Below are positions 20,949-38,803 of a DNA stretch of 52,784 bases, one piece after another. The position numbers and the translations under genes were made by a program. Within the stretch, counting starts at the first letter, position 1; each line of letters starts with the position of its first letter. The notes under the pieces were generated by a model. The model was not told the origin of the DNA. It searched no databases and was given only the letters and a program-made list of their open reading frames with translations. This stretch comes from a virus (taxonomy: Duplodnaviria; Caudoviricetes): IMG/VR virus record IMGVR_UViG_3300024258_000612, positions 1 to 52,784 of that record. One strand, 5' to 3'.

Positions 20949-21728
20949 ATGAGTAAAACAATAAGAAAAAAGAACTACCCACTTGACACGATTGGAATTA
21001 TCGGATACGGTATGGTGGGTAAGGCCGTGGAGTACGGGTTCCCAAACTGTAAACATTTAATATCGGATCCGGCGTATAACAATACGTCTGCTACCGATGT
21101 ATGCAACGGTAGACCTTCAGTTATTTTTATTGCTGTTCCTACCCTTACCGATGACAAAGGTAAGATCGAACATCAGATATTAGATAATACTTTAGATGAG
21201 GTGGAAGCCTCTGGTTACACGGGTTTAGTAGTAGTTAAGTCAACTATTCTACCACACTTCCTAGAAAATAGGGGCATAGTATATAACCCAGAGTTTTTAT
21301 CTAGAGCCACTTCCTTTAACGATTTCGTAAACCCTCCTATGTTAATTCTAGGAGGCGACCGTTCTAAAGAAGTGTTGGATCTGTACAAACTTAATTCTAA
21401 TGTACTAACGGATAAAGTATTTTTAACGGATGTTAAGACTGCTGCATTTGCAAAGTATGCTATGAACACTTTCTATGCTACTAAGATTACGTTTATGAAT
21501 GAGCTGTACCACGCTTTTGATGGAGACTGGGAAGAGTTAACGAGTATCTTAAAGGAGCACCCTTGGATGGGATCTCATCACTTTGAGGTACCTGGGCCTG
21601 ATGGAAGCTTCGGCTTTGGAGGCCCTTGCTTTCCTAAAGACACTAAAGCGCTGGCTACGGAATATAACATGGAATTATTAAATAAGGTACTAGAGTTAAA
21701 TGATAAGTATACTAATATTAACACATAA
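20949..21728 (+). CDS. ugd: UDP-glucose/GDP-mannose dehydrogenase family protein lacking the C-terminal domain
   Basis: GYGMVG, KSTI, YNPEFL, KYAMNTFYATKITFMNE, catalytic GFGGPCFPKD. Confidence 0.88.
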   Translation: MSKTIRKKNYPLDTIGIIGYGMVGKAVEYGFPNCKHLISDPAYNNTSATDVCNGRPSVIFIAVPTLTDDKGKIEHQILDNTLDEVEASGYTGLVVVKSTILPHFLENRGIVYNPEFLSRATSFNDFVNPPMLILGGDRSKEVLDLYKLNSNVLTDKVFLTDVKTAAFAKYAMNTFYATKITFMNELYHAFDGDWEELTSILKEHPWMGSHHFEVPGPDGSFGFGGPCFPKDTKALATEYNMELLNKVLELNDKYTNINT

Positions 21729-23160: not shown

Positions 23161-24098
23161 AAAAGCAATATGATGAGGCCCATAAAATACAAAGGCTGTA
23201 TATACATTGGGATGTAAGTACCCAATGTAGTCTTAAGTGTAGCTATTGCTACGCTTGGAAACAGTATGGGAAAGACTGGGGTAAACTTGCGGGATGGGCG
23301 TCTCAACAATTAGTAATACACGCACTAAGCAGAGCCTCCCTACCTATATTCCTAGGACTATTAGGAGGAGAGCCCACCGACCACCCTAAGTATCTAGAGT
23401 TGCTAGAAAAGGTAAGTACCGTTATTTCTAAGCATAAGGATAGTAGGTTATATATAACTACCAATGGTCTACAAGATAGGGACTTCTTTGAGGGACACCC
23501 TGTATACCCTAATACATACTTTCTATTTAGCTTTCATCCAGAGTATGAGAGTAAGTATGGGGAGGGGTTCAGTTTACTACTAGACAACATCAGAACCATA
23601 CAGGAAAAAGGTTTTAGAGTTAAAGTTAATGTGATGCTTCACCATAGAAAATTCTTTTGGAAAAAAACACAGACATTCGTAGATAAGTTAGAAGAGATAG
23701 GAGACTTGGAAATTCACCCCCATTTTCTGTACGAAGACGGAGATGTGCACAGCCTAGAAAGCTACACAGAAGGGTTCTTTGAGGAGTTTCGCAGATTTAA
23801 GAAATATCCTGGGTACTTAGTTTATGAAGATGAAGAAGGGGCTACCAAAGAAGTGCTTAATGACTATGAGGTTTTCTCTCAGGACAGAACAGACTTTAAA
23901 GGTTGGACTTGTTGGAATAACAATTATGAAATATCCTGGGAAGGTAAAGTTGCTAGGTTTTGTTTTGAGGAACACGCTGATCTAATTACTAACGTGAACT
24001 ACTTTAAAAATATAGAGTCTGTAATACCTAAAACATGTCCACACACCTCTTGCAACTGTGACGGGTTACTAAAAATATATAAAGAGAAACTAGAATGA
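23157..24098 (+). CDS. Radical SAM protein with twitch-like C-terminus
   Basis: CSLKCSYC, LGGEP, TTNG, CPHTSCNC. Confidence 0.9.
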   Translation: MKKQYDEAHKIQRLYIHWDVSTQCSLKCSYCYAWKQYGKDWGKLAGWASQQLVIHALSRASLPIFLGLLGGEPTDHPKYLELLEKVSTVISKHKDSRLYITTNGLQDRDFFEGHPVYPNTYFLFSFHPEYESKYGEGFSLLLDNIRTIQEKGFRVKVNVMLHHRKFFWKKTQTFVDKLEEIGDLEIHPHFLYEDGDVHSLESYTEGFFEEFRRFKKYPGYLVYEDEEGATKEVLNDYEVFSQDRTDFKGWTCWNNNYEISWEGKVARFCFEEHADLITNVNYFKNIESVIPKTCPHTSCNCDGLLKIYKEKLE

Positions 24099-25111
24099 TA
24101 ACAACAGCACAGAAAGGAACTATAAAGCCCTATCATACTTTCGAAGTAGTCAACCAACTAGAGTCCCCCGGAGTAGATGCCGACTATATGGTATTCTGGC
24201 GCATAACAGAGTCATGTAATTTAGATTGCGACTATTGTCATTGGTATGATAAAGGCGCTGCCCCCGAGACCTTTCAAGATCTAAAGACTATTGTTGATGA
24301 ACTATTCGAGTTCTTTAAGCATGAAAACATTAATAGTGTTTTATTCTACTACCATGGAGGCGAGCCGACTAGAATCTCGTTCCTAGATAAAATCATAGAC
24401 TACATAACTGAAACAGGAATAAAGCAGGGGTTGAAGATATTTAACGAACTTCAAACTAATCTAATATGTAATCAAAAGACTATAGCCAACTTGATACCCA
24501 AGGTAGACTTGTTAAATATATCTCCGCATTATTCACAATACATTGGCAAGCCTCAGCTTAAAGATGTATTTGAGAAGAACATGAAGTACATAATGGATAA
24601 CAATATATCAATACATAACTTTGATATTATGCTGGAAGACCTTAGTGAAGAGCACACTAAAAAGTTTAAAGTTTGGATATCAAAGTACCTCAAGTACGAG
24701 CACCTAATCAACTCTGAAATGATTTATAACTACTGGCGGGTAGATAATAACGCAGAGTTAAAAGACATATATAAAGAGTTCTATGATGAGTTCAATATTA
24801 CTAGGCAAACCTACCGGGTGGACGGGGTACTATACGATACTAATGAATTATTTGGTAAAGGACTAAATGCCGTGGGTATGAGGTGCGAGGCAGGTCAAAA
24901 GAGTATTATGTTACTTGGGAGCGGCAATGTATTTGTATGTGGTAGACCTATGACGGACTTTCTAAATAAGTTACCAGACTCTGACCCCTATACTAATATA
25001 CTAACGGATAAGCACGCTAAAACGAAGTTATCAGTGCTTTACAAATTTGGTACGGTATGTGATAGTGACGAGTGTGGGGGAGAGTATTACCTAAAGAAGG
25101 TTATAACATGA
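24095..25111 (+). CDS. Radical SAM protein with twitch-like C-terminus
   Basis: CNLDCDYC, HGGEP, LQTN, CEAG...GNVFVC...CDSDEC. Confidence 0.9.
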   Translation: MITTAQKGTIKPYHTFEVVNQLESPGVDADYMVFWRITESCNLDCDYCHWYDKGAAPETFQDLKTIVDELFEFFKHENINSVLFYYHGGEPTRISFLDKIIDYITETGIKQGLKIFNELQTNLICNQKTIANLIPKVDLLNISPHYSQYIGKPQLKDVFEKNMKYIMDNNISIHNFDIMLEDLSEEHTKKFKVWISKYLKYEHLINSEMIYNYWRVDNNAELKDIYKEFYDEFNITRQTYRVDGVLYDTNELFGKGLNAVGMRCEAGQKSIMLLGSGNVFVCGRPMTDFLNKLPDSDPYTNILTDKHAKTKLSVLYKFGTVCDSDECGGEYYLKKVIT

Positions 25112-25776
25112 AGAATATAGTAAAACAACTAATTGAGTATTCATACGCCAATAACTTAAGCCACATCCCTTCGGCTTTATCTATGCTATCGTATCTGGAG
25201 GAACTATTTGAGAAAAAGTTAGTCACTAAAGAGGACTTTATAGTTATTGGGAAGCCCTTTGGGTCCCAGGCTTACTATCTATTGTGGGAGAAGTATTGGG
25301 GGTTGAAAATAGAAGGGCTATCTGCAGGGGTTAAGCACGATGAAATAGACTTCGTTGATTATTCGGAGGAGACTATAGGCAATGCACTAGGTGTTGGGTG
25401 CGGTATAGCGATGACTACTGATAAACTAGTTTGGGTCAATATTACAGATGCTACTCTTCAGATGGGTAATACGTTAGAAGCTATTCAGTTTATAGGGCAA
25501 ATGCAGCTAAAGAATATTGCACTAACTATTGATTATAATAACTCACAAGTATTGGGGTCCACTAGTGATATTATAGATGTTGACCCTGTTATACAGATGT
25601 TTAAGGCGTACAACTGGCATGTTGAACACGACTTAAGTAATTTTGGAATGACCGTCCGACCCAGAGTATACGTACTAAAGACAACTAAAGGGGATGGAAT
25701 TCCTGTTATGGAAGACAATATTAAAGAATGGCATTATAAGGTACTAAATGAGAAAGACTTTAAACAAATTTATTAG
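25108..25776 (+). CDS. Transketolase-like N-terminal (ThDP-binding) subunit
   Basis: SHIPSALS, IGNALGVGCGIA, DATLQMGNTLEA, IDYNNSQ, TTKGDG, WHY. Confidence 0.85.
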   Translation: MKNIVKQLIEYSYANNLSHIPSALSMLSYLEELFEKKLVTKEDFIVIGKPFGSQAYYLLWEKYWGLKIEGLSAGVKHDEIDFVDYSEETIGNALGVGCGIAMTTDKLVWVNITDATLQMGNTLEAIQFIGQMQLKNIALTIDYNNSQVLGSTSDIIDVDPVIQMFKAYNWHVEHDLSNFGMTVRPRVYVLKTTKGDGIPVMEDNIKEWHYKVLNEKDFKQIY

Positions 25777-26212
25777 GCGTAACCCAGACATCATATTACT
25801 TCATTGTGATATGTGGGGGTTTGATTGCCCCTCTATAAACATGGGAATACAAGAACCTAATATGGTTAATGTAGCTGCAGGTCTGGCATCACAAGGTAAG
25901 AAAGTTGTTGTATACGGCGTTGCTGGCTTTGTGTTGTATAAAGCCTACGAACAAATGAAATTGAATGTCAAGGGCTGGGCTGAGAACTATGGTTCTATTG
26001 TATTTGTTAATGCGGGAAGAAATGGTTGTTACTCTGTATGTGGCAGAGGGCACTTAGTAGAAGATGACCAAGACTTATGTAAGGCTTTAGACTTAGACTT
26101 GTACACCCCAGAAACTAGAAAAGAATTTCTAAGGTGCGTTAAAGAAGGTCTACAAACTAAAGGCTCCAGATTTATTAGACTAGGTAATGATGGCGAAGTA
26201 TGGACAGAGTAG
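25748..26212 (+). CDS. Transketolase-like pyrimidine-binding subunit (short)
   Basis: INMGIQEPNMVNVAAGLASQG, KAYEQMK, FIRLG. Confidence 0.85.
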   Translation: MRKTLNKFIRRNPDIILLHCDMWGFDCPSINMGIQEPNMVNVAAGLASQGKKVVVYGVAGFVLYKAYEQMKLNVKGWAENYGSIVFVNAGRNGCYSVCGRGHLVEDDQDLCKALDLDLYTPETRKEFLRCVKEGLQTKGSRFIRLGNDGEVWTE

Positions 26213-26817
26213 TAGTTACTGGAGCTAGTGGATTTATAGGATCTCATCTGGTTGCCAACTTGAAAAAGCAGCATGAAGTTATAGAGGTGCAATACCCTTA
26301 CCCAGAGGTGAAAGATTGTACACGAGTGTATCATTTGGCTGCGCCGGCGACCACAGAGTTCATTACTCAAAACCCTTTACAGGTACTGGACTACATTGTA
26401 GCATGGACGAAATCTGCTATGAAAATAAACCCCGAAGCTCTCTTTATAAATATAAGCAGTATGGGAGCAGAAAACACAAGGGGTGAAGAAGAACAGGCTT
26501 GTTATAATACAGCAAAAAGATATATGGAGCTATATATTAAGTATTCTAATATAAGAGGGGTGAACTACAGGCTTCCTGCAGTGTATGGGGAGGGTATGCA
26601 CTCTGACTATTATATTAAGAGATGTATCGATGGAACCGCTACCGAGCCTATAGAAGACAAGGAATACTTTATTACTCATATAGATGAGGTAGTAGATGCT
26701 TTAGTAGCAGTAAGAAACTTACAAATAACAGAAACAACAATAAAGGAGATATATGAATTATTTACTACTGGGAGGCGCGGGATTCATTGGAACCCATTTA
26801 GCCAAGAATTTAATTGA
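26200..26817 (+). CDS. NAD-dependent epimerase/dehydratase (short)
   Basis: VTGASGFIGSHL, YHLAAP, YNTAK, VYG. Confidence 0.85.
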   Translation: MDRVVVTGASGFIGSHLVANLKKQHEVIEVQYPYPEVKDCTRVYHLAAPATTEFITQNPLQVLDYIVAWTKSAMKINPEALFINISSMGAENTRGEEEQACYNTAKRYMELYIKYSNIRGVNYRLPAVYGEGMHSDYYIKRCIDGTATEPIEDKEYFITHIDEVVDALVAVRNLQITETTIKEIYELFTTGRRGIHWNPFSQEFN

Positions 26818-27640
26818 AGAAGGACACAGCGTTACAATAGTAGACTCTCTGAGTACCTCAGAAGTACCAGACTACGGGGCAGTTTTCCTTAAAGGGGATG
26901 TATCCACAATGGATTTAAACGCTCAAATGGAAGAAGCTGATATAGTGTACTACCTAGCAGGTTCTGTAGGAGTGGAACATATTGACAAAAACCCTTCAAG
27001 TACTCTATTTAATAATATTAGTATAATGAGTAAGCTTATACCCTTATTTGAGAAACACCAAAAGAAAGTTATCTTTTCCTCCACTTCAGAAGTATACGGC
27101 GAAGGCCCTACGTTTAAAGAGAGTGACCACTTAAGTATTGGATCTCCTGATAAACTTAGATGGGGGTATGCATGTGCTAAACTTATGACAGAGTTCATGA
27201 TCAAGGCCTCTACGTTCCCTTCTGTCATTATTAGATTCTTTAATGTGGTAGGCCCGGGGCAGTCTGGAGAGTACGGAATGGTACTTCCTAGGTTTATTTC
27301 AGCAGTAAACACAGATAAGAGTATAGTAGTATACGGGGATGGTAAGCAAGTAAGATCGTTTTGCCACGTTAAAGATGCCGTAGTGGCCCTAAGACTTTTA
27401 GAGGGTGAAGAAGGTACGTATAATGTAGGAAATGACTCCCCTACTACTATAGTAGATTTAGCTATTAGTGTAATTCAAACTGCTAAAGTGAAGTGTAGAG
27501 TGGAGTTTAGAAAGTACGAACAGGACTTCTCAGACCAACACGGAGATATAATGAACAGAGTCCCCGATATAAGTAAACTAAGAAAGCTAGGGTATGAGCC
27601 CCAGTATAATTTAATGGATATAATTAAGGATATGTTATGA
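26753..27640 (+). CDS. NDP-sugar epimerase/dehydratase/decarboxylase (extended SDR)
   Basis: GGAGFIG, SSTSEVYG, YACAK, RFFNVVGP, GDGKQVRSFCHVKD. Confidence 0.92.
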   Translation: MNYLLLGGAGFIGTHLAKNLIEEGHSVTIVDSLSTSEVPDYGAVFLKGDVSTMDLNAQMEEADIVYYLAGSVGVEHIDKNPSSTLFNNISIMSKLIPLFEKHQKKVIFSSTSEVYGEGPTFKESDHLSIGSPDKLRWGYACAKLMTEFMIKASTFPSVIIRFFNVVGPGQSGEYGMVLPRFISAVNTDKSIVVYGDGKQVRSFCHVKDAVVALRLLEGEEGTYNVGNDSPTTIVDLAISVIQTAKVKCRVEFRKYEQDFSDQHGDIMNRVPDISKLRKLGYEPQYNLMDIIKDML

Positions 27641-28284
27641 AGATACTATTTATTTTTGCCCACCCAGATGATGAGGCGTATGGCCCAGCAGGAACAATAC
27701 ACAAACTAGCTAATGCAGGTCACAGTGTTACAGTGGTTTCTATGTGTAAAGGTGATCGCCCTGGGTCAGAAGAAGTATCTACAGGGCGAATGGCTGGATT
27801 TGAAAAGAGTTGTATGGCGCTAGGGGCGGCTCCAATCATATTCTTAGGCAGTGATTGCAAGTTAGAGTATTGTGACACTCTCAAACAGATTGAAGAAGTT
27901 GTTAATGATTTAGAACCTGAGGTTGTATACACCCATAGTATATCTGATATACACAAAGACCATAGGTTAGTTGCTGAATGTGTTATGGTAGCGACCAGAC
28001 CTAAACCAGGCTCTTCGATTAAAGAATTGTATATGTGTGAGCTACCGTCTTCTACCGACTGGGCGTTTGGCCAGCTAGGAGGGTCATTTGTACCTAATAC
28101 GTATGTAGATGTGAGTATGGAGATATATAAGAAACAGCAGGTGATGGGGTACTACACAACTGAGACGTACGATTACCCTGACGCTAGATCCATTGAAAGT
28201 ATGGAAAGTTTAGCTATGTACCGAGGTAAGCAAGTTGGTATGCACAGAGCGGAAGCTTTCAAACAAATTTTCAAACTAGTCTAA
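27637..28284 (+). CDS. PIG-L/LmbE-family de-N-acetylase
   Basis: AHPDDE, HKDH, PNTYVDVS, AEAF. Confidence 0.92.
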   Translation: MKILFIFAHPDDEAYGPAGTIHKLANAGHSVTVVSMCKGDRPGSEEVSTGRMAGFEKSCMALGAAPIIFLGSDCKLEYCDTLKQIEEVVNDLEPEVVYTHSISDIHKDHRLVAECVMVATRPKPGSSIKELYMCELPSSTDWAFGQLGGSFVPNTYVDVSMEIYKKQQVMGYYTTETYDYPDARSIESMESLAMYRGKQVGMHRAEAFKQIFKLV

Positions 28285-29304
28285 TACAGGACTCCCTATC
28301 ATATTACTTCTACAGTAATGTATAGGGTCTCCAATCTTCTCTCCCTCTTCTGGGAACACAGGCATTTCTTGCCCCTTCTCCACTCCATCACATATATAAA
28401 AGTGTTTACAAGTTATGCATGTCAAAGGCTTCTGGTAAGAGGAGGCTCTTTGCAGCTCTGCTGTACTATACAAGTCTTTAAGGTTATCCTTAGTAAGTAC
28501 AATACCTCTATCATCTTGGGCGTAGTAGGCAATATTCCAATCATACAAATCAAAAGGTAATTGCATGTACCCTATCACATACTTTTCGTACCCTTTCATA
28601 TAGCACATAGGTATGTACCTAACATTTACGTACCTAATTGACGCTATCTCATCTAAATAGTTGTGAAGATACTTGGACATATCTCCATAGTCTATAGTGG
28701 TCTTTTCGTGCCTATTATCTCCCCAGTAATTAACAACAATAAAGTTTAACTGTAAGGGTCTAAGAGACTCTAAAACTTTTGTATCAATGCACTTGTAGTT
28801 CTCAAAAGATACAGTACAGTTTATTCTAACAACTATACCTAGTTGATGCGCGTTCTCTATTGCTTGTACGATTTTCTTAAAAGAGCCTTTACGCTCTGTT
28901 ATCTTGTCATGAATTTCGGCAGTTTGCCCATGTACAGAAAATAGAATCTCTCTAAGACCTGCATCTTGTGATTTCTTAAGGAAGTCTATATTTGCAAACT
29001 TTCCCCCGTGGGACACACAAGATAAGTAGTCGAACCTCTTATTTGCGTACTCTAATATGTTGAACCAGTTGGGTTCAACAGAGCTCTCTCCCCCTGAGAA
29101 ATCTAAGGAAGTCATTCCGTACTCTTTTGCATAATCTATTTGAGAAAATATCTCCTCTAGAGGTCTTCTCTCCGATAGCTGTAACTTGTAGTAGCAAAAA
29201 TTGCACTTGTAGTTACAAAAAGGGCCCGTGTCTATACGAGCCCTTTTACATATGGTGTCAGATATTACGTCTACTTTCTTTGCAGACATCAGCGATAGGC
29301 TCAT
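28276..29304 (-). CDS. Radical SAM protein with C-terminal CxxCx5C
   Basis: CNYKCNFC, FSGGE, IPMC, CITCKHFYICDG. Confidence 0.9.
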   Translation of the reverse strand: MSLSLMSAKKVDVISDTICKRARIDTGPFCNYKCNFCYYKLQLSERRPLEEIFSQIDYAKEYGMTSLDFSGGESSVEPNWFNILEYANKRFDYLSCVSHGGKFANIDFLKKSQDAGLREILFSVHGQTAEIHDKITERKGSFKKIVQAIENAHQLGIVVRINCTVSFENYKCIDTKVLESLRPLQLNFIVVNYWGDNRHEKTTIDYGDMSKYLHNYLDEIASIRYVNVRYIPMCYMKGYEKYVIGYMQLPFDLYDWNIAYYAQDDRGIVLTKDNLKDLYSTAELQRASSYQKPLTCITCKHFYICDGVEKGQEMPVFPEEGEKIGDPIHYCRSNMIGSPVLD

Positions 29305-30179
29305 GCTAGCTCCTTTATAAGGGTTAATAAATAATCAGAGGAGGTCAACTCTAAAGACCCAAAATCGTTTTCTATATCATACTTACGGGCATTTAAGCCG
29401 GCATCTTCATAATCAATCTTATAGTAGTGAACTGGTATATTATAGTAAGCACACTCCGCTATTAATCTAGGGGAGCAATCCATTCTAGAAATACTAGAAA
29501 TACTAGCCCCGGGGCAGAACACTGGGGTGTAAATGTAAGCATTGATCTGATTTATAAGGTTGGGAATAGGTTTATCGGTACAAGTGATGTAGCTGTCAAA
29601 CCCGTAAGCGCTTTTTACTTCTTCGATATCATACCTTCTACAATTCTGCGTTAAATATAAGAACGCAGAAGTACCTGGGGATGTTTTGGGCTTTAAAGCA
29701 CTGAACAAAAGTTTCTTCTTGTAATCAATAGTATTGAGTAAGGGTTTATCCGTGTATACCCTATTATCCTGTAGTAAGTATACGTTGTCTCTGTTTTTTA
29801 AAGAGTCAAAGGAATCAATCTTACCGCATCTAAATATTATTAGGTTTTTACAAAATATAAATCCGCCCATACTGAAGAGCATAGAGGCGGACCCGTCTGT
29901 TATTATAACCGTTTGATGAGGTGCTTGTAATATTTTTACGCCCTCTGCTACTAGTATATCTTCTTCAGCGGGTAAGATGCTATACTTGTCCCTTGCTAGA
30001 TTTAGTAGTTCTTCTTTTGAAGTACCATCCCCTAGGAATATGGCTACCTTATAGAACTTGCTAAGAAATAAATAGTAGTCTAAGACCTCGAAAGAATGCC
30101 CAGATATCTTACCATGTGTTACCTTGTACCAGGAGTATGAAATTACTATATCATATTCTTCTGGCACCTTGTATATCAT
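29301..30179 (-). CDS. Hypothetical protein, possibly a degenerate GT-B glycosyltransferase
   Basis: Full-length coupled ORF; DCSPRLIAEC loosely resembles the GT-B donor-binding loop. Confidence 0.5.
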   Translation of the reverse strand: MIYKVPEEYDIVISYSWYKVTHGKISGHSFEVLDYYLFLSKFYKVAIFLGDGTSKEELLNLARDKYSILPAEEDILVAEGVKILQAPHQTVIITDGSASMLFSMGGFIFCKNLIIFRCGKIDSFDSLKNRDNVYLLQDNRVYTDKPLLNTIDYKKKLLFSALKPKTSPGTSAFLYLTQNCRRYDIEEVKSAYGFDSYITCTDKPIPNLINQINAYIYTPVFCPGASISSISRMDCSPRLIAECAYYNIPVHYYKIDYEDAGLNARKYDIENDFGSLELTSSDYLLTLIKELA

Positions 30180-30766
30180 AGTAGGTCTTCTACGTCAATC
30201 CTCTCACTACCGAATGTGTTGGGTATCTTGTACAGTTTTTTAACTACAGCAGTGTACAACTCGTTGTACGTATTGTTGTAAGGGAAGCAAAAGTAGTTAA
30301 TCTTCTGCTTTAACTCCTTATCAAACCACTCTACCATTTTAGCAGTATCTTCCTTCATAAAGTTAAACTTGTAACTTAGAGCACTATGGAGAGGATACGC
30401 TTCTTCTTCTAGTATTTTTTCTTTAAAATGAGAAAAGGAATGACCCCCAATAATAGTATTAGGAAGGGACTTCAGATGCTTTATCTGCTTAATGTTCATG
30501 AAAGCATTGCCCCTGCCTGCCTCGAAAAACTGTAGGTGTGCTTCCGTACTAGAGGAGCTCTCGGCTTGAGGGGTACCGTTCTCTGTATGTAAAATCCCTG
30601 GAGAAATAAAGTATACTTTTGTAGTGGGTATACTATTAAAATGCTCCCAATGTACGTACTGACTATATAGACCATCGTCAAACGTTATAAGGTACTCTGC
30701 GAGCGTCTCTTTAGGGATCGCTAGGATCTCGGGGGTTACCTCATGAATACATAAAACCTTTGCCAT
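30176..30766 (-). CDS. Polysaccharide deacetylase (NodB/CE4)
   Basis: ITFDDG, GHSFSH, FCFPY. Confidence 0.88.
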   Translation of the reverse strand: MAKVLCIHEVTPEILAIPKETLAEYLITFDDGLYSQYVHWEHFNSIPTTKVYFISPGILHTENGTPQAESSSSTEAHLQFFEAGRGNAFMNIKQIKHLKSLPNTIIGGHSFSHFKEKILEEEAYPLHSALSYKFNFMKEDTAKMVEWFDKELKQKINYFCFPYNNTYNELYTAVVKKLYKIPNTFGSERIDVEDLL

Positions 30767-30767
30767 T

Positions 30768-31376
30768 TTAACTACCTATACTAAAGAATTGGGTTCTTAA
30801 AGTCTCGACTTCCTCTTCAGTCTCTGAGGCAAGTACCGCTGTTTTAAAAATTTTATACTGCTCCCATAGGAATCTTTTAGCGGATAGTTGGTCCTTAGCC
30901 TCTAAATACTCTTCCAGTTGTTGGATTAATGCAGTGTTACCTGTATTAAGAATAGCCAAGTAGTTCTCCTCCCTATTAGCATCGGTGATATTATACCCAG
31001 CATCTTGCAACACGTTATTACCCTCCATATAGTTGAATAAAACGACTACGTTAAGAGTAGTAAACCTTTGATACATTCTTGTGCGTGCGGAAGATATAGC
31101 ACTATTGCGCACCCTCTCTATTCCCTCGGTGCTTTCTGTAATTTGCAGGTCTCCAGGTTGCAACTCTGGGCCACTTAAGTCCGTAGACTTAGGTATTACC
31201 ACGGTATGTCCGTCCTCTAACATTTGTTGCAAGATATCTGCCGTTACTGCAGATAGTCTCATATAAAAACCTCCTGCAGTATCTAAAAATTGAGTGTCGC
31301 TTACTACAACACCCGTCAACTGCCACTCTGTGCCAATATCTTCTATACTAGCTACTTCATATACTCTACTTGCCAT
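30768..31376 (-). CDS. Hypothetical protein
   Basis: Overlaps the end of the Cys-rich/S74 gene; helical C-terminal half. Confidence 0.7.
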   Translation of the reverse strand: MASRVYEVASIEDIGTEWQLTGVVVSDTQFLDTAGGFYMRLSAVTADILQQMLEDGHTVVIPKSTDLSGPELQPGDLQITESTEGIERVRNSAISSARTRMYQRFTTLNVVVLFNYMEGNNVLQDAGYNITDANREENYLAILNTGNTALIQQLEEYLEAKDQLSAKRFLWEQYKIFKTAVLASETEEEVETLRTQFFSIGS

Positions 31377-32190
31377 TGTTTAGTTTCTCCGATAATTCTT
31401 TTACTGCGTTTATTAAAATTGGTACAAGCTCTATATAGCTAACCATTAATTTACCATTTTTGTCCTCTGATACTAAGACGTCATCATTTAATTCTTGGGC
31501 CATAACACCGTAGTGCTTAGCCTCTTTGTCCCACAGGTATTGGAACTTATATGTATCAATATTATTAAGGTAATCTAGTCCTAAATTTAAAGGTTCTATA
31601 TCTCTTTTGAGGGTAATATCACTATAATTACATCTACAGTCTGTGTTACAGGTACATACAGAGTTACAGGCACAATCTGAGTTACAAATACAGTCCCCTT
31701 CTAGTGCTCTGATTCTGTTCCTCAGAGAAGTTACTACTGAAGCAGCAACAGCCGTCCCGTCCCCGGGTATCCCAGTGTTGCCTCCCATCCTGTTTAAGGC
31801 AGAGTTCACATTAGAGAAGTGGGCGTTGTCTATAGCAGATCCGGCGCTTACATTAGAGCCCGGCACACTAGTAGTATACGAAAAGTCCTTATGAGTATTC
31901 CTACTAGTGAGTTCCTCAGATATAGCAGTTCTTAACTGATTTACGTGATAGTCTCTAATAGACCACCCAGCTGCAAGGCTTCCATCTGAAAACCCTGTCT
32001 TATTTCCTGTGCAGGTACTTCTATGCCCTGCACAAGATGCTAGCCCTACAGGTACGCCTTCAGTATGTGCACTACAAATACCCGTACTTTCCCCTTCTGT
32101 AGCCCCTGAATAATTGTATGTAACAGTTGAACCTTGCGCATTAGTGTACGTGAAGCTCTGCCCTGAGGTTAAAGTCTTAGTATACGCCAT
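31366..32190 (-). CDS. Cys-rich protein with C-terminal peptidase S74 autocleaving chaperone domain
   Basis: CICNSDCACNSVCTCNTDCRCNY followed directly by SDITLKRDI...GVMAQE...VSYIELVPILINAVKEL (S74/ICA signature). Confidence 0.88.
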   Translation of the reverse strand: MAYTKTLTSGQSFTYTNAQGSTVTYNYSGATEGESTGICSAHTEGVPVGLASCAGHRSTCTGNKTGFSDGSLAAGWSIRDYHVNQLRTAISEELTSRNTHKDFSYTTSVPGSNVSAGSAIDNAHFSNVNSALNRMGGNTGIPGDGTAVAASVVTSLRNRIRALEGDCICNSDCACNSVCTCNTDCRCNYSDITLKRDIEPLNLGLDYLNNIDTYKFQYLWDKEAKHYGVMAQELNDDVLVSEDKNGKLMVSYIELVPILINAVKELSEKLNNGK

Positions 32191-33325
32191 TATTACTCCT
32201 TTCTATCAATAGTTCCTGAAAGGCTCTATCTACTTTTCCAAAATACTGGAAGTATGAACACATTTGTGGTTGGTTGGTATCATCGTACCATCTATCTTCT
32301 AAAGACATCTTCTTACTTATTTGTGATTTAAGAGCAGGGCACTTAACACAGGTTGTGGCTGGACAAGTTATACAAGGGTCTGGAGTTGTATAGTCGTGAT
32401 TTATTAAATTGCCTTTAAATACTTCCAACTTACTAAAGAACTCCTCATTAGAGTCCTCAATGTTTGCTAAGTGCAGCTCTTCCCTGTTTTCTTGATAGAT
32501 AACACCATGACATGCCAGCACATCCCCTTCTACAGTTATAGCTGTAATGCTCTGCCCTGCAGCACACTGAGATCCTTTAACACCCCCATACCAGCTAAAT
32601 AAAGTATGGCCATTCTTTTCAGAGAAGGCGAGCTCCTTCTTAGTTAGGGCAACAATCTTGCTCTTATACATTTCCATATAAGCGTGTTGGTCACTATCAT
32701 CATAGTAGTCTATAGTAGGGGAATAAGCCAGCTGTAACCCTTTCTCTTTAAACTTATAGTACAGGTCCTCGTAGTCGTCCCATATATCTTCGAGGTGTAC
32801 AAAGTACTCAGGAACTAAAGTAGCTTTTAGGTGCAAATTAATATTAGGTATCTCTAGTAGCTTAAGTATGTTATCTCTAACTCTTTGAGTACTGTCCTTG
32901 CCAGTTATCGTCAATCTGAGAGGGTCTGGCATTAATCCATCATAGGACACTTGTATCTGAACCCTTTCATCTAACATATCTCTTAACTCTCTAAGGTCAT
33001 ACCCATTAGTATACATGTGATACTTTACAGGGTGCCCTTTAAACTCCTCTAAGAACTCTTTTATTAAAGGCTTATTTAGGGTAGGCTCTCCTCCCCAGAA
33101 GTCAATCTTAACACCTCCATACTCCCCTAAGTTTTTTAACTTGTGGTGTATCTTCTCTTTAGTCAGCTTTATCTGTTCTGGGGTTAGTAGTGTCTCATTG
33201 AGCTTATAATTTTCGTCGGGGTTATCTCCACAGCCTTCAAAGCAGTATGAGCACCCTAAGTTGCACTGCTGAGTTGTGGTTATCTCGAATGTGTAATATC
33301 TTTTTACCGGGGTGTAGTCGTCCAT
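32177..33325 (-). CDS. Radical SAM/SPASM maturase (anSME/peptide-maturase-like)
   Basis: CNLGCSYC, FWGGEPTL, YTNG, QVSYDG; SPASM-type CAAG...GDVLACH...CITCPATTCVKCP...C. Confidence 0.9.
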   Translation of the reverse strand: MDDYTPVKRYYTFEITTTQQCNLGCSYCFEGCGDNPDENYKLNETLLTPEQIKLTKEKIHHKLKNLGEYGGVKIDFWGGEPTLNKPLIKEFLEEFKGHPVKYHMYTNGYDLRELRDMLDERVQIQVSYDGLMPDPLRLTITGKDSTQRVRDNILKLLEIPNINLHLKATLVPEYFVHLEDIWDDYEDLYYKFKEKGLQLAYSPTIDYYDDSDQHAYMEMYKSKIVALTKKELAFSEKNGHTLFSWYGGVKGSQCAAGQSITAITVEGDVLACHGVIYQENREELHLANIEDSNEEFFSKLEVFKGNLINHDYTTPDPCITCPATTCVKCPALKSQISKKMSLEDRWYDDTNQPQMCSYFQYFGKVDRAFQELLIERSNNGVY

Positions 33326-33522
33326 TATGTCATTAGTAGTTGTTTAAATTGGTTCTTCTCTTCTTCAGGGAAGTACGCTTTATCTTCGGGGATAATAGAC
33401 ATAAAGTCTTGCGCTTGTATTAAGTACTCAGAAGAGAGCTCCAAGTCTATAGGCTCTAACTCTTTAGCTATATTGAAGAGGCTTTCCGCTACTCTAGCTA
33501 TTCTATCATATGACTCCGCCAC
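33325..33522 (-). CDS. Small acidic hypothetical protein
   Basis: One-base overlaps with both neighbours. Confidence 0.6.
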   Translation of the reverse strand: MAESYDRIARVAESLFNIAKELEPIDLELSSEYLIQAQDFMSIIPEDKAYFPEEEKNQFKQLLMT

Positions 33523-33808: not shown

Positions 33809-34990
33809 TTATTTGTATATGTATATAGTACCTGTTTGCCCATTATGCTTGTAAGAACCTGCTACTAGTGCTCTATCTGACACACCAACGGGGTGCCCAA
33901 ACCAGTCACCTTGGGCACTGTTAGTTGCCGTTATTTTCGCAAGAAATACTCCACTCGTATCATATAGGTATACAGAGCCGGAACTAAGGACACCATTATC
34001 ATCATCAGAACGAGATCCTATCGCTATAAGACTGTCCGATACGGATATGGAGCTACCAAAGTTATCATAATCTTCGATATCGTACGCAATTACTTTAGTT
34101 ATAAGAGTGCCATCAACATCATATATATATACAGCTCCTCGTTGGGTAGGGTGCTCCCTGCTGGGGGCTCCTATCGCTATAACCGTGTCAGAAATAGCGA
34201 CAGGAGCACCAAAAACGTCATTCGCTTGACCATCGTAGGCAGTTATTTTTTTTATAAAGCTGCCGTTGATGTTGTATAAGTAGGCTGCCCCTGCGGTATC
34301 TCCTAAATCATCGTCTCCTAGTGCACTTACTACTATTCTAGTGTCAGAGGCTGCTACGTTGTTTCCAAACCTGTCAAAAACCTGGGTATCATGAGCGGTT
34401 ATTTTTGTAAGAAAACTCCCGCTCGTACTGTATAGGTATAGGGCTCCGGAACTCTGGTAGGGAGTATCGTGGTCTGGGGCACCTATGGCAATAACAGTAT
34501 TAGAGATAGCAATAGTAAAGCTGCCAAAATTATCATACGCGCTACCATCAGGAGGCACGAGTTTAGCTTGATACACCCCATCAATACTATATAGGTAAGC
34601 TGCTCCTATATTGTTATCCCTCGGAGCACTAATAAGAATGGAAGTATCTGAAACCGCTACCTGAGTACCAAACTGGTCACCGTTTATACCCCCTGGGGAA
34701 GTTATGTGGTGCAACTGGGTACCATTAATATCATATATGTATATAGATCCTACTACGCCCGATTGTTGTCCATCATACGTACCTACTACTATTCTATTGT
34801 CCGAAACTGCTACTGAAGAGCCAAATCGGTAGCCCCCGGGTACAGAGGGGTATATCTGAGACTCAAGGGAGAGGCTGTCTCCTTCAATACTCCCAGACCA
34901 AATCTCCACTCCGTCAAGATTTATAATTTTAATAGCGGTACCGTTGAAAGTTACATTCTTAATATCGGCTAAATTAATGCTTTGCGACAT
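33809..34990 (-). CDS. FG-GAP (integrin-alpha-like) beta-propeller protein
   Basis: About 7 repeats of D.FG..VA.SD....GAP......GA.YLY...G. Confidence 0.85.
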   Translation of the reverse strand: MSQSINLADIKNVTFNGTAIKIINLDGVEIWSGSIEGDSLSLESQIYPSVPGGYRFGSSVAVSDNRIVVGTYDGQQSGVVGSIYIYDINGTQLHHITSPGGINGDQFGTQVAVSDTSILISAPRDNNIGAAYLYSIDGVYQAKLVPPDGSAYDNFGSFTIAISNTVIAIGAPDHDTPYQSSGALYLYSTSGSFLTKITAHDTQVFDRFGNNVAASDTRIVVSALGDDDLGDTAGAAYLYNINGSFIKKITAYDGQANDVFGAPVAISDTVIAIGAPSREHPTQRGAVYIYDVDGTLITKVIAYDIEDYDNFGSSISVSDSLIAIGSRSDDDNGVLSSGSVYLYDTSGVFLAKITATNSAQGDWFGHPVGVSDRALVAGSYKHNGQTGTIYIYK

Positions 34991-35003: not shown

Positions 35004-35747
35004 CTATGTTGTTATATTTAAAGTATCCCCGGATACAGAGAAGGAGGCCCCTACAGGTCCTTGAGGGCCTTGAGGTCCTGCTGGTCCTTGAGGGCCTTGA
35101 GGGCCTTGAGGGCCTGTAGCACCTTGAGGGCCTGCAGCACCTTGAGGGCCTTGCAGTACTGCAGTACTAATAGTAGCTCTACCGTTCACGCCCCCTGAAA
35201 CGTCATATATAGAAATATAGTCATTAGAAGAAGGAGAAGAAATAATAGGAAGTGCAGCCATACTATGACTATGCCCCGAGGCAGCATACCCTGCACTACC
35301 ATGATCTCCCCAGCCCCACGCAGAGTTCCAATGACTAATACCTGTAGTAGTTACACCGCTTGCTGCATGGGTGCTTGCTAAGGCACCTACATGTCCTGCA
35401 TTTAATACTACAGAACCCGTCTGAGTATTAACACTTGATACTGTATCAGCAGGGGTCTGTAGTTCTACCCAGTTTGTGCCGTCATAAATATAGTTAGTGC
35501 TATTACTAATAACAATCGCCATATCACCACTCGTTGCGCTTAGAGCGTTTCTTGCGGTAATGTCTGCTACTTGGGTAACTGAGCTAAGTTGTCCTGCACG
35601 AGCTAAAGCGAAGCCCCCTAAGGTGGCCCCGTCATGAATGACTACCGTATTCTTATCTGAATCGTAAGTAATCTCTCCTGCAGAGCCTGTAAAGGCCGCA
35701 TGTTCAGTAGAGGTACCACTTCGTAGTTGCAGAACATTAGTTAACAT
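35004..35747 (-). CDS. Tail fibre with Mtd-like N-terminus and collagen repeat
   Basis: LQLRSGTSTEHAAFTGSAGEITYDSDKNTVVIHDG (Mtd N-terminal motif), VSSVNTQTGSVVL, 12 G-X-Y triplets. Confidence 0.8.
   Translation of the reverse strand: MLTNVLQLRSGTSTEHAAFTGSAGEITYDSDKNTVVIHDGATLGGFALARAGQLSSVTQVADITARNALSATSGDMAIVISNSTNYIYDGTNWVELQTPADTVSSVNTQTGSVVLNAGHVGALASTHAASGVTTTGISHWNSAWGWGDHGSAGYAASGHSHSMAALPIISSPSSNDYISIYDVSGGVNGRATISTAVLQGPQGAAGPQGATGPQGPQGPQGPAGPQGPQGPVGASFSVSGDTLNITT
35048..35153 (-). repeat. 9-nt period tandem repeat encoding collagen-like GPQ
   Basis: Repeated CCTTGAGGG units on the + strand. Confidence 0.9.
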
Positions 35748-36233: not shown

Positions 36234-36557
36234 TTATTCTTCTACTGTTTCTACCCAAGAGGTAGTGTCTTCATCCCAAGAGTACATTAAGTCATCTGTT
36301 GGGTAAGCTATAGGTGCGTTCCAAGTAAAGTCAGCATCTAGTGTCCACGAAGGGAATGGTTGAGGTGAAATAAATACTTCATTTACCTTATCCCAAGTGT
36401 CACCGATAGAAGCATACTTGCCCCTAAAGTTTCCGTTGTAAGATGTTTGAATCCATAGAAATGAATCACCTACAGCACCTGAATTAATAAAGTCTTGTTC
36501 AGCAACAATTACTTCTGTAACAATGTTGTTACTCTCTACCTTTGCAAAATGACTCAT
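36234..36557 (-). CDS. Tail-fibre-associated small protein
   Basis: MSHFAKV...WIQTSYNGNFRGKYA.IG...FISPQPFPSW...YSWDE, a pattern I recall downstream of Gly-rich fibres. Confidence 0.75.
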   Translation of the reverse strand: MSHFAKVESNNIVTEVIVAEQDFINSGAVGDSFLWIQTSYNGNFRGKYASIGDTWDKVNEVFISPQPFPSWTLDADFTWNAPIAYPTDDLMYSWDEDTTSWVETVEE

Positions 36558-38803
36558 ACTGCATACCTCACTATTACTATTCCTGAACCACCACTACCAG
36601 CAACGGTACTGTTGTGTCCTGCAGCACCACCTCCTGAGCCTGTGTTAGCACCACCGTTGCCTCCACCTGACGTACTACCTGAACCACCTGAGTTGAGAGC
36701 CCAAGCACCTCCATATGACATGCCACCTGAATCAGAGCCACCGCCGCCGCCGCCGCCGATACCACCCATACCACCTGTACAATGTACGTAGTTACCACCG
36801 CCACCACCACCGCCCCAATAATAGGTAGCACCATTAGGACCCATTTTCATTATTTGCTTTCCTGGGCCACCTGTGCCACCTCCACCTGTCGTACCGCTGT
36901 CACCCGCACCGTTTGCGCCACCACCGCCACCTGAACCATAACAACCGCCACTCACACTACTGCCACCATTAAATCCGGCATAAACTAAATACCCAGAAGC
37001 AGACGGTGCAGTACCGATACCACCACCATAACCTCTGTTACCGCCACCACCGTTTGCGCCATTACCACCAACGCCGATACCACCTGAACCTAAACCTCCA
37101 CCTGTTGCAGTTACGCCAAAAATAGAGGTTGAGCCACCAGCACTATTAGCACTGCCACCGTTTCCAATGGTGACACTATAGCTCTGAGGAGTGACCGTAA
37201 GAGAAGTTCTGTGTAGAACTGCACCACCGCCGCCACCACCGCCCATTTGACCAGTAACACCTGCACCACCACCGCCGCCGCCAACAATAAGAACATCAAC
37301 AGAACCTGAAGCTTCAGCAGTAAACGTACCTGAAGATGTAAACGTATGAACTTTGTAATTAGTACCGCCTGATGCGTATGTTGATACAGTACCACCAGTA
37401 GCCGAGAATTTATTACTCATTGTGTCCCAACCAGAACCTGACCATACCTTCATAGCACCACTAGTAGTATCAAACCACATATCGCCTTGAGCAGGATTAT
37501 CCGGGTCTGTAGCTGATACTGTAGCAGCATCGATATCTGTTAGAGCAGCACCACTAATAGCAGGTAAAGAACCGGTTAACGTAGCAGCATTAATACCTAA
37601 AGAATCTACATGACTCTTAGTAGCAGGAGGACTTAACTCAACAACCTTAGCATCAGTCTCAGCCTTAGTGTATCTATCAGCCAATGTAGTAGCAGCAGTA
37701 CTTGCACTTGATGCAGCTGCCGAAGCAGAACCAGAAGCATCAGATGCCTTTGTAGTTGCTGTTGAAGCAGAAGCAGAAGCACTTGATGCAGAAGAAGCAG
37801 CTTCAGAAGCTTTAGTAGTTGCAATCCCAGCATTAGTTACTGCAGTATCCTTATGACCACTTGCTGTACTTGCAGAACCAGCAGAAGCAGAAGCACTTGC
37901 CAATGCATCAGCAGCTTTATTAGTTGCGGTTACAGCAGAAGCAGTGGCACTTGTTGCCTTTGTAGTAGCTAAAGTTGCCTTTGTTGATGCTGTTGAAGCA
38001 GAACCACTTGCTGCCGCGGCAGAACTTGATGATGCAGAAGCAGAACTGGCAGAAGCAGTAGCAGAAGTTTCTGCATCATCTTCACTTGATTGGGCATCTG
38101 TAGCACTTGAACCAGCACTAGTAGCAGAAGCAGTAGCACTAGTAGCAGAAGCGGTAGCACTTAATTGAGCAGCTTCAGCAGCACCTTGTGCAGTTTCTGA
38201 ATGAGCTTGAGCAGTTTCTGCATGAGTCTCTGCTAATTCAGCATTGGTCTCTGCAGTTTCTGAATGTGTTTCAGCAACCAAAGCAGCATTCTTATATGTC
38301 TCTGCATTGGTAGCACTGATAGTAGCCGCGGCAGCTTTAACAGTTGCAGTGTTTGCATCTATAGCAGCTTGTTGAGCTTGATACTTAGCAGAATATTCTC
38401 CACCATCAACAGCACCTGTAGTCTTAGTTGCCCATTGTTGAGATAAACCTTCAGCACTTTCAGCAGCAGTTTGTGCAGCTACAGCATTATTCTTTGAAGT
38501 TTCAGAAGCGGTTTGTGCTATTAAAGCATCTGTCTTAGCAGTTGCAGCAATACCTTGAGCGGTTTCAGCAGCAGTCTTAGCGTTCTCAGCTAGCGTCTGT
38601 GCAGTTTCAGCATCGGTCTTAGCGGTATCTGCTAAACCTTTAGCAATCTCTGCTCCGGCCTTTGCAGTCTCTGCAGCTTGTTTCGCTGTATCTGCCGAGG
38701 CAATCTTACCATCCATATCTGTGATACGTCCAGTAACTGTCGTTTGCAGTGTTGTTGTGTTTGATACTAGCGTATTTACTGCATCAGTTAAACTTGTTGG
38801 CAT
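36554..38803 (-). CDS. Tail fibre: Ala/Ser/Thr-rich coiled stalk plus glycine-rich C-terminal domain
   Basis: ATTKASEA repeats, GDMWFDT, HTFTSSGTF...VDVLIVGGGGGG...GGSGIVIVRY. Confidence 0.85.
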   Translation of the reverse strand: MPTSLTDAVNTLVSNTTTLQTTVTGRITDMDGKIASADTAKQAAETAKAGAEIAKGLADTAKTDAETAQTLAENAKTAAETAQGIAATAKTDALIAQTASETSKNNAVAAQTAAESAEGLSQQWATKTTGAVDGGEYSAKYQAQQAAIDANTATVKAAAATISATNAETYKNAALVAETHSETAETNAELAETHAETAQAHSETAQGAAEAAQLSATASATSATASATSAGSSATDAQSSEDDAETSATASASSASASSSSAAAASGSASTASTKATLATTKATSATASAVTATNKAADALASASASAGSASTASGHKDTAVTNAGIATTKASEAASSASSASASASTATTKASDASGSASAAASSASTAATTLADRYTKAETDAKVVELSPPATKSHVDSLGINAATLTGSLPAISGAALTDIDAATVSATDPDNPAQGDMWFDTTSGAMKVWSGSGWDTMSNKFSATGGTVSTYASGGTNYKVHTFTSSGTFTAEASGSVDVLIVGGGGGGAGVTGQMGGGGGGGAVLHRTSLTVTPQSYSVTIGNGGSANSAGGSTSIFGVTATGGGLGSGGIGVGGNGANGGGGNRGYGGGIGTAPSASGYLVYAGFNGGSSVSGGCYGSGGGGGANGAGDSGTTGGGGTGGPGKQIMKMGPNGATYYWGGGGGGGNYVHCTGGMGGIGGGGGGGSDSGGMSYGGAWALNSGGSGSTSGGGNGGANTGSGGGAAGHNSTVAGSGGSGIVIVRYAV

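Follow-up and report, generated by a model that had tools for sequence, protein, structure and literature searches.

A radical SAM enzyme gene conserved beside a cysteine-repeat protein gene in phages and predatory bacteria: a putative enzyme-substrate pair

We have analyzed a 52.8 kb contig of a virus of the Caudoviricetes, the IMG/VR record IMGVR_UViG_3300024258_000612 (completeness estimate 47%), whose whole stretch of 52,784 nucleotides we call the window. In it, the gene of a radical S-adenosylmethionine (SAM) enzyme with a SPASM-like auxiliary domain (32177-33325) overlaps by 14 nt the start of a gene for a protein of 274 amino acids (aa), which carries a repeat with eight Cys followed by a Peptidase_S74 domain. 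Sequence comparison indicates that this is one case of a more general module than a preliminary description of the window had supposed: an enzyme and a Cys-repeat protein kept together across a whole family, in which S74 is an optional, removable follower. A functional coupling of the enzyme with the Cys protein is, in our view, quite probable. The features of the pair are the following.

31366..32190, minus strand: Cys-repeat protein, 274 aa (open reading frame, ORF; Pfam S74; 66 homologous clusters; AlphaFold2, AF2, predicted local distance difference test, pLDDT, 72.6)
32002..32076, minus strand: N-terminal Cys/His-rich units CSAH, CAGH and CTGN, residues 39-63 (ORF, alignment)
31696..31953, minus strand: helical core, helices 80-97, 122-133 and 150-165 (AF2 block pLDDT 85-95)
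31624..31692, minus strand: eight-Cys repeat at residues 167-189, with the invariant Tyr189 as its last residue (sequence, alignments, tandem array)
31369..31623, minus strand: Peptidase_S74 intramolecular chaperone/autocleavage domain, residues 190-274, with the Ser190-Lys195 dyad (Pfam)
32177..33325, minus strand: radical SAM/SPASM enzyme, 382 aa, putative maturase (Pfam, NCBIfam, orthologues, fold)
33242..33265, minus strand: CxxxCxxC radical SAM cluster motif C21, C25, C28 (invariant in 15 orthologues)
32258..32566, minus strand: seven-Cys auxiliary-cluster (SPASM-like) region, C254-C356 including G267 (invariant in 15 orthologues; CteB profile match)

Conservation of the gene pair

We collected 81 loci with a homologue of the Cys-repeat protein, 17 from IMG/VR and reference genomes and 64 metagenomic. 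Seven of them are uninformative, the Cys ORF touching the 5' end of the contig, and 74 are left; the IMG/VR and metagenome sets have some contigs in common, and the 74 loci hold 61 distinct Cys proteins, with 24-82% identity to the window protein. An ORF was taken as an orthologue of the enzyme when it scored at least 90 bits to the hidden Markov model of an enzyme alignment (A3). Such an orthologue, on the same strand and ending between -29 and +33 nt from the start of the Cys gene, was found in 73 of the 74 informative loci. At the last one (L100) there are 138 nt available upstream, and they match the enzyme C-terminus at E 5e-11. The enzyme and Cys-repeat genes are a conserved pair, and apparently a translationally coupled one. 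The preliminary description had reported that a SPASM radical SAM gene overlaps the 274-aa gene, and the overlap is indeed there; homologues of the Cys-repeat/S74 gene that commonly stand without such a neighbour are not what we have found.

We have also searched in the opposite direction. When IMG/VR was scanned with the enzyme alignment, 36 loci came out, from which three weak or partial ones (L051-L053) were set aside, leaving 33 orthologue loci (L018-L050). Counting as a Cys-dense partner any ORF, radical SAM ones excepted, in which 30 residues hold 6 Cys or more, an adjacent partner was detected in 29 of the 33, directly downstream in 28 and 302 nt upstream in the other (L029). These loci have 241 non-radical-SAM ORFs, of which 31 are Cys-dense, 29 of them next to the enzyme; in the window a single one of the 62 ORFs of at least 80 aa reaches six Cys in 30 residues, the Cys-repeat ORF itself. 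The repeat type varies among partners, with (CTCNCNY)n in L039-L041 and L048, a Cys-His repeat (CHSD/N)n in L046 and a tail of the CICDSHCNCD type in L036 and L038. What the partners have in common is a Cys-rich tail, not one fold.

Among the loci with a weaker enzyme match, L051 has two (CTCNCNY)-type proteins ~0.9 kb downstream. Two tandem paralogous Cys-repeat proteins stand by one enzyme gene in L041 (5141-6289) and L051 (6257-7479); tandem substrate paralogues are common in multi-precursor clusters of peptides that ribosomes synthesize and that are modified post-translationally (RiPPs).

The Cys repeat and the mature C-terminus

Residues 167-189 of the Cys-repeat protein contain eight Cys in four units of the six-residue CxCNxx type, with an Asn-Tyr end. 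The sequence read before, CICNSD-CACNSV-CTCNTD-CRCNY at 31624-31692 and then SDITLKRDI, is what the ORF translates to, and the N-terminal CSAH, CAGH and CTGN units were also found where expected, at residues 39-63. In the DNA, the repeat shows as 3.4 tandem copies of an 18-bp unit. With residues 40-192 as query, a protein search gave 66 clusters, none with a functional name, and 64 of them match the strict four-unit Cys pattern. Members of the family are 150-530 aa long. In an alignment of 61 sequences the repeat is the best-conserved part of the family: C169, C173, C179, C181, C185, C187 and Y189 are invariant, and C167, C175, N170, S171, D172, N176, V178 and N188 are kept at 90% or more, as are S190, D191, L194 and K195 just behind. 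Towards the N-terminus, R57, C60 and N63 are invariant in a 10-sequence alignment (A1).

The AF2 monomer has a confident helical core, and a Foldseek search of this model against the PDB gave no match at E<=0.001. Searching GenBank phages with the Cys protein gave S74-domain matches only (residues 189-274, 12 records). Its PHROG tail-fibre matches mostly cover the C-terminal part including S74, the few longer ones being weaker. One member of ~406 aa with the enzyme directly upstream is on a contig labelled human gut metagenome (L092), so that the module occurs outside aquatic samples as well.

The Peptidase_S74 model of Pfam is matched by residues 190-235 (E 2.6e-10; 40.9 bits, with the cutoff at 22), and a second search placed S74 at the same position (31486-31623, 43.2 bits). 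The Ser190/Lys195 dyad comes directly after Tyr189. Its spacing is that of S911/K916 of endoNF and S587/K592 of MyRF, and in endosialidase NF the cut at the Ser happens only once the trimer is assembled, according to the sections available of one publication (PMC8326128).

Within the family we have found three forms of what follows the repeat: the full S74 domain, with 66-90 aa past the Tyr; a follower of only 12 residues, SDxRLKxEIxYC; and a form without S74, in which the ORF stops 0-2 residues past the conserved Tyr. The latter was detected in 11 of the 61 distinct proteins by a strict pattern, and by eye also in L013 and L098. Cleavage of S74 in the window protein would therefore produce the same C-terminus that the S74-less members get by a stop codon, and the comparison supports the repeat as the probable mature C-terminus. 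That the repeat is exposed by S74 autocleavage, as first proposed, is in this way supported at the level of sequence by the S74-less homologues and by the position of the dyad. The role of S74 as a removable follower can be kept in part: the dyad right after the Tyr agrees with it, but the domain is optional.

The 12-residue remnant of S74, with the dyad Ser and Lys and mostly a Tyr-Cys end, is seen in L088, L095-L097, L099, L101 and L104, and the same remnant appears in the protein clusters P0019, P0026, P0038, P0050, P0056, P0064 and P0066. In L029 (3175-3968) and L048 (5046-5857) the Cys-repeat part and the rest of S74 are split into adjacent ORFs.

Residues 54-274 were also folded as a homotrimer. 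The ipSAE was 0.89 against 0.00 for the best control, with at least 51% of the contacts common to the runs and a partner pLDDT of at least 73; in the calibration of this score 20 of 30 solved pairs and 1 of 23 single chains attained the required level. The confident interface comprises only residues 187-270, that is S74, and the model is thus uninformative on the repeat. The pass may reflect the likeness of S74 to solved trimers. Since the confident contacts lie in S74 only, the trimer score has not been counted in the choice between a metal site and a cross-link.

The radical SAM/SPASM enzyme

The enzyme matches Pfam Radical_SAM (PF04055) with E 7e-14 and 52.8 bits, the cutoff being 29.5. In 15 orthologues the Cys of the radical SAM motif (C21/C25/C28), the seven Cys of the auxiliary region (C254, C272, C318, C321, C326, C329 and C356) and G267 are invariant. 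The central auxiliary spacing is CX2CX4CX2C, and the canonical one in SPASM domains is CX2CX5CX3C. The assignment of the gene to the SPASM enzymes in the preliminary description is sustained by the seven-Cys pattern, the fold and the likeness of profiles, but not by the Pfam SPASM model, to which the orthologue of the Campylobacter phage CP220 scores 16.8 bits, below the cutoff of 21.5.

Among NCBIfam models the best match was PapB (E 6.4e-19, 68.3 bits against a cutoff of 340), with QhpD second (E 1.6e-15, 56.8 against 453); the SCIFF maturase (E 7.9e-13, 48.1 against 425) and anSME (E 5.7e-10, 38.8 against 349) were also matched, the last one over the full length (residues 17-370). A profile search against PDB sequences put CteB (5wgg) first, E 1.8e-18, and anSME next, 8e-13. 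The match covers chain residues 102-423 of CteB, so that the enzyme is aligned without the RiPP recognition element (RRE) of CteB. The AF2 model of the enzyme (pLDDT 77.6, predicted template modelling score 0.80) gave a similar picture with Foldseek: CteB at 1.2e-13 (template modelling score, TM, 0.60), anSME at 1e-12 (TM 0.61), and after them ChlB, TigE, SkfB, SuiB and PqqE. The two nearest solved relatives, the thioether-forming CteB and anSME, both act on Cys, and by sequence comparison the enzyme is a new family within the peptide- or protein-modifying SPASM enzymes. PapB, in the part of the report available, joins Cys to carbons of Asp/Glu (PMC12373016).

Campylobacter phages and bacterial copies

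Campylobacter phages of group II have an orthologue of the enzyme (30% identity, with 96% of the query covered, E 5e-42). CP220 was found through the enzyme search only, not through the Cys protein. Here gp136 is the enzyme orthologue and is followed by a 1159-aa protein with 3 Cys. Another protein of this genome, gp140 (534 aa; L054, 2161-3765), has a (CNYCTCD)n array and six or more dispersed CxC(N/D) units, and neither S74 nor any other Pfam match. CP220/CPt10 are similar to the window in having an enzyme orthologue and a Cys-repeat protein in the genome; CP220 differs by the distance between the genes, the internal repeat and the lack of S74.

The accessible text of the publication that described CP220 and CPt10 counts 11 and 12 radical SAM proteins, which it calls 'highly unusual' (PMC2853527, 2010). 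In the same sections a 21-bp repeat inside the gp140 gene is noted and metabolic roles are proposed, and no link between enzyme and repeat is drawn (PMC2853527). For the phage IBB_35, one publication has 38 virion proteins, listed in its supplementary tables (PMC3322345). A cyanophage paper, again in its accessible part, names a radical SAM 'maturase' only as an antibiotic-synthesis gene (PMC12801897). In the full-text literature that we searched there is no account of a Cys-repeat/S74 protein paired with a radical SAM enzyme, and the pairing is apparently undescribed.

The pair has also been found, without S74, in two Halobacteriovorax genomes and one Bdellovibrionales metagenome-assembled genome. 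One of the Halobacteriovorax genomes (G001; L015/L119/L120) has it in a chromosomal island that housekeeping genes flank on either side, aromatic amino-acid genes being found on one of them. An EPSP synthase/DHQS fusion is located just upstream of the cassette with chorismate synthase on the same side, and the far end has GMC-oxidoreductase-like and CN-hydrolase-like genes. Besides several radical SAM genes and sugar enzymes, the island contains a DegT aminotransferase and an S74 fibre-like protein of 526 aa distinct from the Cys protein, and the genome has at least 4 other S74 proteins. A Pfam scan of the 26 ORFs within ~20 kb on each side found none of the capsid, portal or terminase families at E<=1e-5. 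We have considered the cassette as a prophage of Halobacteriovorax and rejected this, the flanks being housekeeping genes and island enzymes with no capsid, portal or terminase in that scan.

The module is not confined to phages. In the window the Cys-repeat gene stands at the end of the tail-fibre gene block, and the label of virion protein would derive from this place together with S74. The phage structural setting described at first is consistent with both, but the module is found as well in a bacterial chromosomal island.

Proposed explanation

We propose that the two overlapping genes code for an enzyme and its substrate. The latter would be a protein with a helical core whose last 23 mature residues are four units of the CxC(N/H)xx type ending in Tyr. 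S74 would trimerise the protein and then cut itself off between Tyr189 and Ser190 by means of the Ser190-Lys195 dyad, and the mature window protein would end in ...CxCNY, as the S74-less relatives do. The enzyme, predicted to have one radical SAM [4Fe-4S] site and a seven-Cys auxiliary domain and to be RRE-less, most likely acts on the cysteines of the tail. As for the chemistry, our guess is sulfur-to-carbon thioethers, from Cys to neighbouring Asn/Asp side chains or to backbone carbons, modelled on the products of the nearest characterised relatives. A trimeric fibre-like protein would in this way end in a knot that resists reduction. The pair would be the core of a larger mobile island, whose further radical SAM, nucleotide-sugar and glycosyltransferase-like proteins may add other modifications. 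In this scheme we infer the action of the enzyme on the tail, the thioether product, the order of modification and cleavage, and the location in the virion.

The enzyme-substrate relation is proposed because the adjacency is strict across a deep divergence and survives changes of repeat type, because the nearest relatives of the enzyme act on Cys, because the non-Cys residues of the repeat are conserved, and because the tail would be a free, probably flexible C-terminus. A pure metal-thiolate site, judging from metallothioneins, would not need conserved non-Cys residues. We give the full explanation, thioether cross-linking of the Cys tail included, roughly even chances, and for thioether links specifically as the product the chances are somewhat under even. 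A wider formulation is put forward tentatively and, taken as a whole, seems rather unlikely. It says that a leader-independent SPASM enzyme welds, by thioethers that are possibly inter-chain, the Cys-repeat C-terminus of a trimeric fibre-like protein, in a mobile island common to phages of aquatic and gut metagenomes and to predatory Halobacteriovorax, with other island enzymes adding further decorations, e.g., a sugar, and S74 as a disposable follower that exposes the tail. The module itself would be a variation on the known theme of radical SAM/SPASM maturases, applied to a fibre-type protein.

Comparison with known systems

The closest characterised systems are CteB with its SCIFF peptide and PapB. 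They share with the window a radical SAM core with a seven-Cys auxiliary domain, give the best profile and fold matches, and have a Cys-rich repeat substrate encoded beside the enzyme; besides, the Cys-x-x-Asp spacings of the repeat are near the Cys-to-Asp/Glu links of PapB (PMC12373016, in its available part). The differences are considerable. CteB has an N-terminal RRE and the window enzyme none, the scores are far below the family cutoffs, CteB and PapB act on a short leader-core peptide whereas the substrate here would be a folded protein (150-530 aa in the family, often with S74), and the window pair is in a phage and within a multi-enzyme island. The anSME enzymes are similar in length, also RRE-less and matched over the full length by profile and by fold, and they act on a protein Cys and not on a leader-bearing peptide; unlike in those systems, no sulfatase is found nearby, the sulfatase motif is not in the repeat, and the score is 38.8 against 349 bits.

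QhpD, the enzyme that introduces cross-links into the small subunit of quinohemoprotein amine dehydrogenase, is a precedent for radical SAM thioethers inside a protein subunit that stays in a complex. It is the second-best NCBIfam match, but with 56.8 bits against 453, no dehydrogenase genes and an unrelated substrate. The NxxcB system makes a Cys-Asn thioether. The preliminary description had counted three NxxC spacings in the repeat; all three are present in the window, but only two are conserved across the family. On the side of the substrate, the S74 intramolecular chaperone (ICA) domains of endosialidases, of the T5 L-shaped tail fibre and of other phage fibres share the Pfam match, the dyad spacing and the predicted trimer. 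In the window the part before the cut is a 23-residue Cys repeat after a helical core and not a recognised triple beta-helix, and many members of the Cys family have no S74 domain or 12 residues of it only.

Points against the proposed explanation and alternatives

Several of our results weigh against the proposed explanation. Regarding the enzyme, Pfam SPASM (PF13186) had no match at E<=0.01 on the window protein, all the curated maturase models are far under their cutoffs, and there is no N-terminal RRE domain, CxxxCxxC starting already at residue 21. Regarding the substrate, not all family members have S74; the third unit's Asn, and with it the third NxxC, is replaced by His, Tyr or Phe in most homologues; and the Cys/His make-up (the third-unit His, the CHSD variant and the N-terminal Cys/His units) fits metal binding equally well. 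The models are uninformative on the Cys-rich parts: the AF2 pLDDT is below 50 on the repeat and on the N-terminal Cys units (there at residues 30-53), which leaves the arrangement of the cysteines unreadable, and the confident trimer interface is confined to S74. The pairing has exceptions as well. Four of the 33 enzyme loci (L042, L043, L044 and L045) lack a Cys-dense neighbour; among them L042, L043 and L045 are contigs of jumbo phages, with an N-terminally extended enzyme and a Cys-poor ORF of at least 790 aa next to it or near. In CP220, gp140 is located ~2.2 kb upstream of gp136 with three genes between, and its repeat is internal. In a bacterial chromosome the module has no phage hallmark genes within ~20 kb on each side by the Pfam scan of 26 ORFs. 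The whole island is common to most loci, and the co-occurrence may be partly inherited synteny. Finally, the pair is embedded in a larger multi-enzyme island; to call it simply a RiPP-like pair understates a system of radical SAM and sugar enzymes.

An alternative for the tail is a metal-binding or cluster tip, in which the CxC units of the three chains, with His/Asn, hold a metal along the trimer axis while the enzyme works on another target of the island, for example a sugar or a different protein. In T4, fibre and spike proteins hold iron or zinc through HxH units. Here a third-unit His is found in most homologues, the variant of L046 is all (CHSD/N), the N-terminal units are of the CxxxHC...H...CxxHR kind, and S74 implies a trimer; the island has four other radical SAM genes and several sugar enzymes with no obvious protein substrate. 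We nevertheless regard this tip as unlikely. The coupling of the genes, from -29 to +33 nt in 73 of 74 loci, is kept across divergent repeat types, residues of the repeat that are not ligands (Asn, Ser, Asp, Val and Tyr) are nearly invariant, and the nearest relatives of the enzyme modify Cys of peptides or proteins, not sugars. Metal binding and enzymatic modification are in any case not mutually exclusive. The enzyme could also modify the Cys tail, or the N-terminal Cys units, by some other radical chemistry, such as an anSME-like conversion of Cys to formylglycine, chemistry on the C-terminal Tyr, or preparation of a site for sugar attachment. anSME is the only curated family matched over the full length (17-370), comes second in the PDB profile and fold searches and, like the window enzyme, is RRE-less and of ~380 aa; Tyr189 is invariant at the mature end, and a GT-B-like protein and nucleotide-sugar enzymes are conserved neighbours. 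Set against this are the 38.8 bits to the anSME model with a cutoff of 349, the absence from the repeat of the sulfatase motif, C/S-x-P/A-x-R, and the best matches by E-value, which are thioether formers; we find such a chemistry quite unlikely.

It would be more surprising, and we think it improbable, that the protein is the precursor of a released peptide natural product, with the helical domain as a large leader, the 23-residue repeat as the core and S74 or the short tail as the follower, giving a free cross-linked peptide. The layout is like that of Cys-rich ranthipeptide and SCIFF systems, a copy of the module is in a bacterial chromosome away from phage genes, and L041 and L051 have tandem duplicated Cys proteins. 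Nevertheless, no protease or exporter family appeared in Pfam/PHROG scans of 11 window ORFs, the cassette of L002 and part of that of L015, by eye no cleavage motif precedes the repeat in the alignment, and the window copy is at the end of a tail-fibre gene block. In terms of what defines a RiPP precursor, a follower-like S74 is present, but the proteins have 150-530 aa and a confidently folded core. S74, in addition, cleaves only after the trimer is assembled (PMC8326128, sections available). The last alternative, that the radical SAM enzymes of the island are served by the Cys-rich protein as an iron-sulfur scaffold or electron donor, we consider very improbable. There are five radical SAM genes in the window, and all radical SAM enzymes need a reductant; an electron donor of this kind would fit also the 11-12 radical SAM genes counted in CP220/CPt10 (PMC2853527, accessible part). 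However, Pfam and NCBIfam gave no match to a ferredoxin- or flavodoxin-like family, the pairing is with one particular enzyme and not with the others, and both the self-cleaving trimerisation chaperone and the C-terminal position would be left unexplained.

The surrounding island and other genes of the window

Besides the pair, four neighbouring genes have equivalents in related loci.

33325..33522, minus strand: 65-aa ORF at the position of the small acidic helical protein of related loci (equivalent by position)
30768..31376, minus strand: conserved downstream partner, 202 aa, phrog_25260 (PHROG E 1.8e-14)
29301..30179, minus strand: conserved island protein, 292 aa, phrog_24441, possibly with a GT-B glycosyltransferase-like fold (PHROG E 8.7e-22; structure lead)
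28276..29304, minus strand: second radical SAM enzyme of the island, phrog_27238 (Pfam, PHROG, NCBIfam; similar ORFs by eye in related loci)

The order of the cassette in related loci, read by eye, is a UDP-glucose-dehydrogenase-like gene, a radical SAM gene of ~335 aa, the small acidic helical protein, the SPASM enzyme, the Cys protein, a phrog_25260 protein of ~200 aa, one or two phrog_24441-type proteins of ~260-300 aa and further radical SAM genes. The downstream ORF of the window (30768-31376) overlaps the end of the Cys-repeat gene by 11 nt, and a phrog_25260-like ORF of ~200 aa is directly 3' in most of 17 loci read by eye, L011 and L012 not included; the window protein has a weak Atlas feature likeness, 0.89, to tail-fibre-assembly-like clusters, which we take as a lead only. 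The same applies to the structure of the phrog_24441 protein, with a TM of 0.66-0.67 to GT4/BshA clusters in the Atlas. The 65-aa ORF had no match in Pfam or PHROG scans, and against a 12-sequence profile of the small acidic protein hhalign gave E 0.0069 and a probability of 5.6%. In L012 (9611-12111) four consecutive paralogous radical SAM genes of ~190-230 aa are found downstream of the pair.

The five radical SAM genes of the window are at 21700-23160, 23157-24098, 24095-25111, 28276-29304 and 32177-33325, and its sugar genes code for a UDP-glucose-dehydrogenase-like protein, a nucleotide-sugar epimerase, a PIG-L deacetylase and a polysaccharide-deacetylase-like protein. The convergent island at 20949-30766, where sugar enzymes are found with several radical SAM genes, has the appearance of a route to an unusual sugar in which several steps are radical ones.

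Just upstream of the enzyme and Cys genes, on the minus strand, are genes for a protein with seven FG-GAP repeats (33809-34990, E 6.4e-71) and for a fibre protein with Mtd_N and collagen repeats (35004-35747). A protein of 749 aa (36554-38803, minus strand; phrog_2295) has long Ala/Thr/Ser-rich and Gly-rich stretches of low complexity, and in the middle of the tail-fibre gene block there is a tryptophan-halogenase-like gene (41396-42748, minus strand; phrog_2928, E 3.9e-104). Far from there, an NAD-dependent DNA ligase appears as two adjacent ORFs on the plus strand (6263-7195 and 7269-8024). Their matches are to the N-terminal and the C-terminal half of phrog_3869, and in addition to two distinct PHROGs of half length, so that the ligase may be naturally split.

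Significance

Small secreted peptides and a few enzyme subunits are the targets for which radical SAM/SPASM maturases are known. Here a SPASM enzyme is tied to a protein whose chaperone, trimerising and self-cleaving, is of the kind typically seen in phage fibres and spikes. Should the tail be modified by the enzyme, this would be the first RiPP-type radical cross-linking in a structural-type phage protein found in the literature that we searched, and the enzyme would be a leader-independent, Cys-modifying one with a compact recognition tag of 23 residues, which could serve for protein stapling. In that case a function would also be assigned to some of the 11-12 radical SAM genes of Campylobacter phages that were called 'highly unusual' in the accessible part of their description (PMC2853527). 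If what takes place is thioether welding of a fibre-like protein, RiPP-type chemistry would build a structural or host-recognition part of the virion, a new class of post-translational modification of virions. That predatory bacteria also carry the island suggests a tool, common to them and the phages, for attacks on other bacteria.

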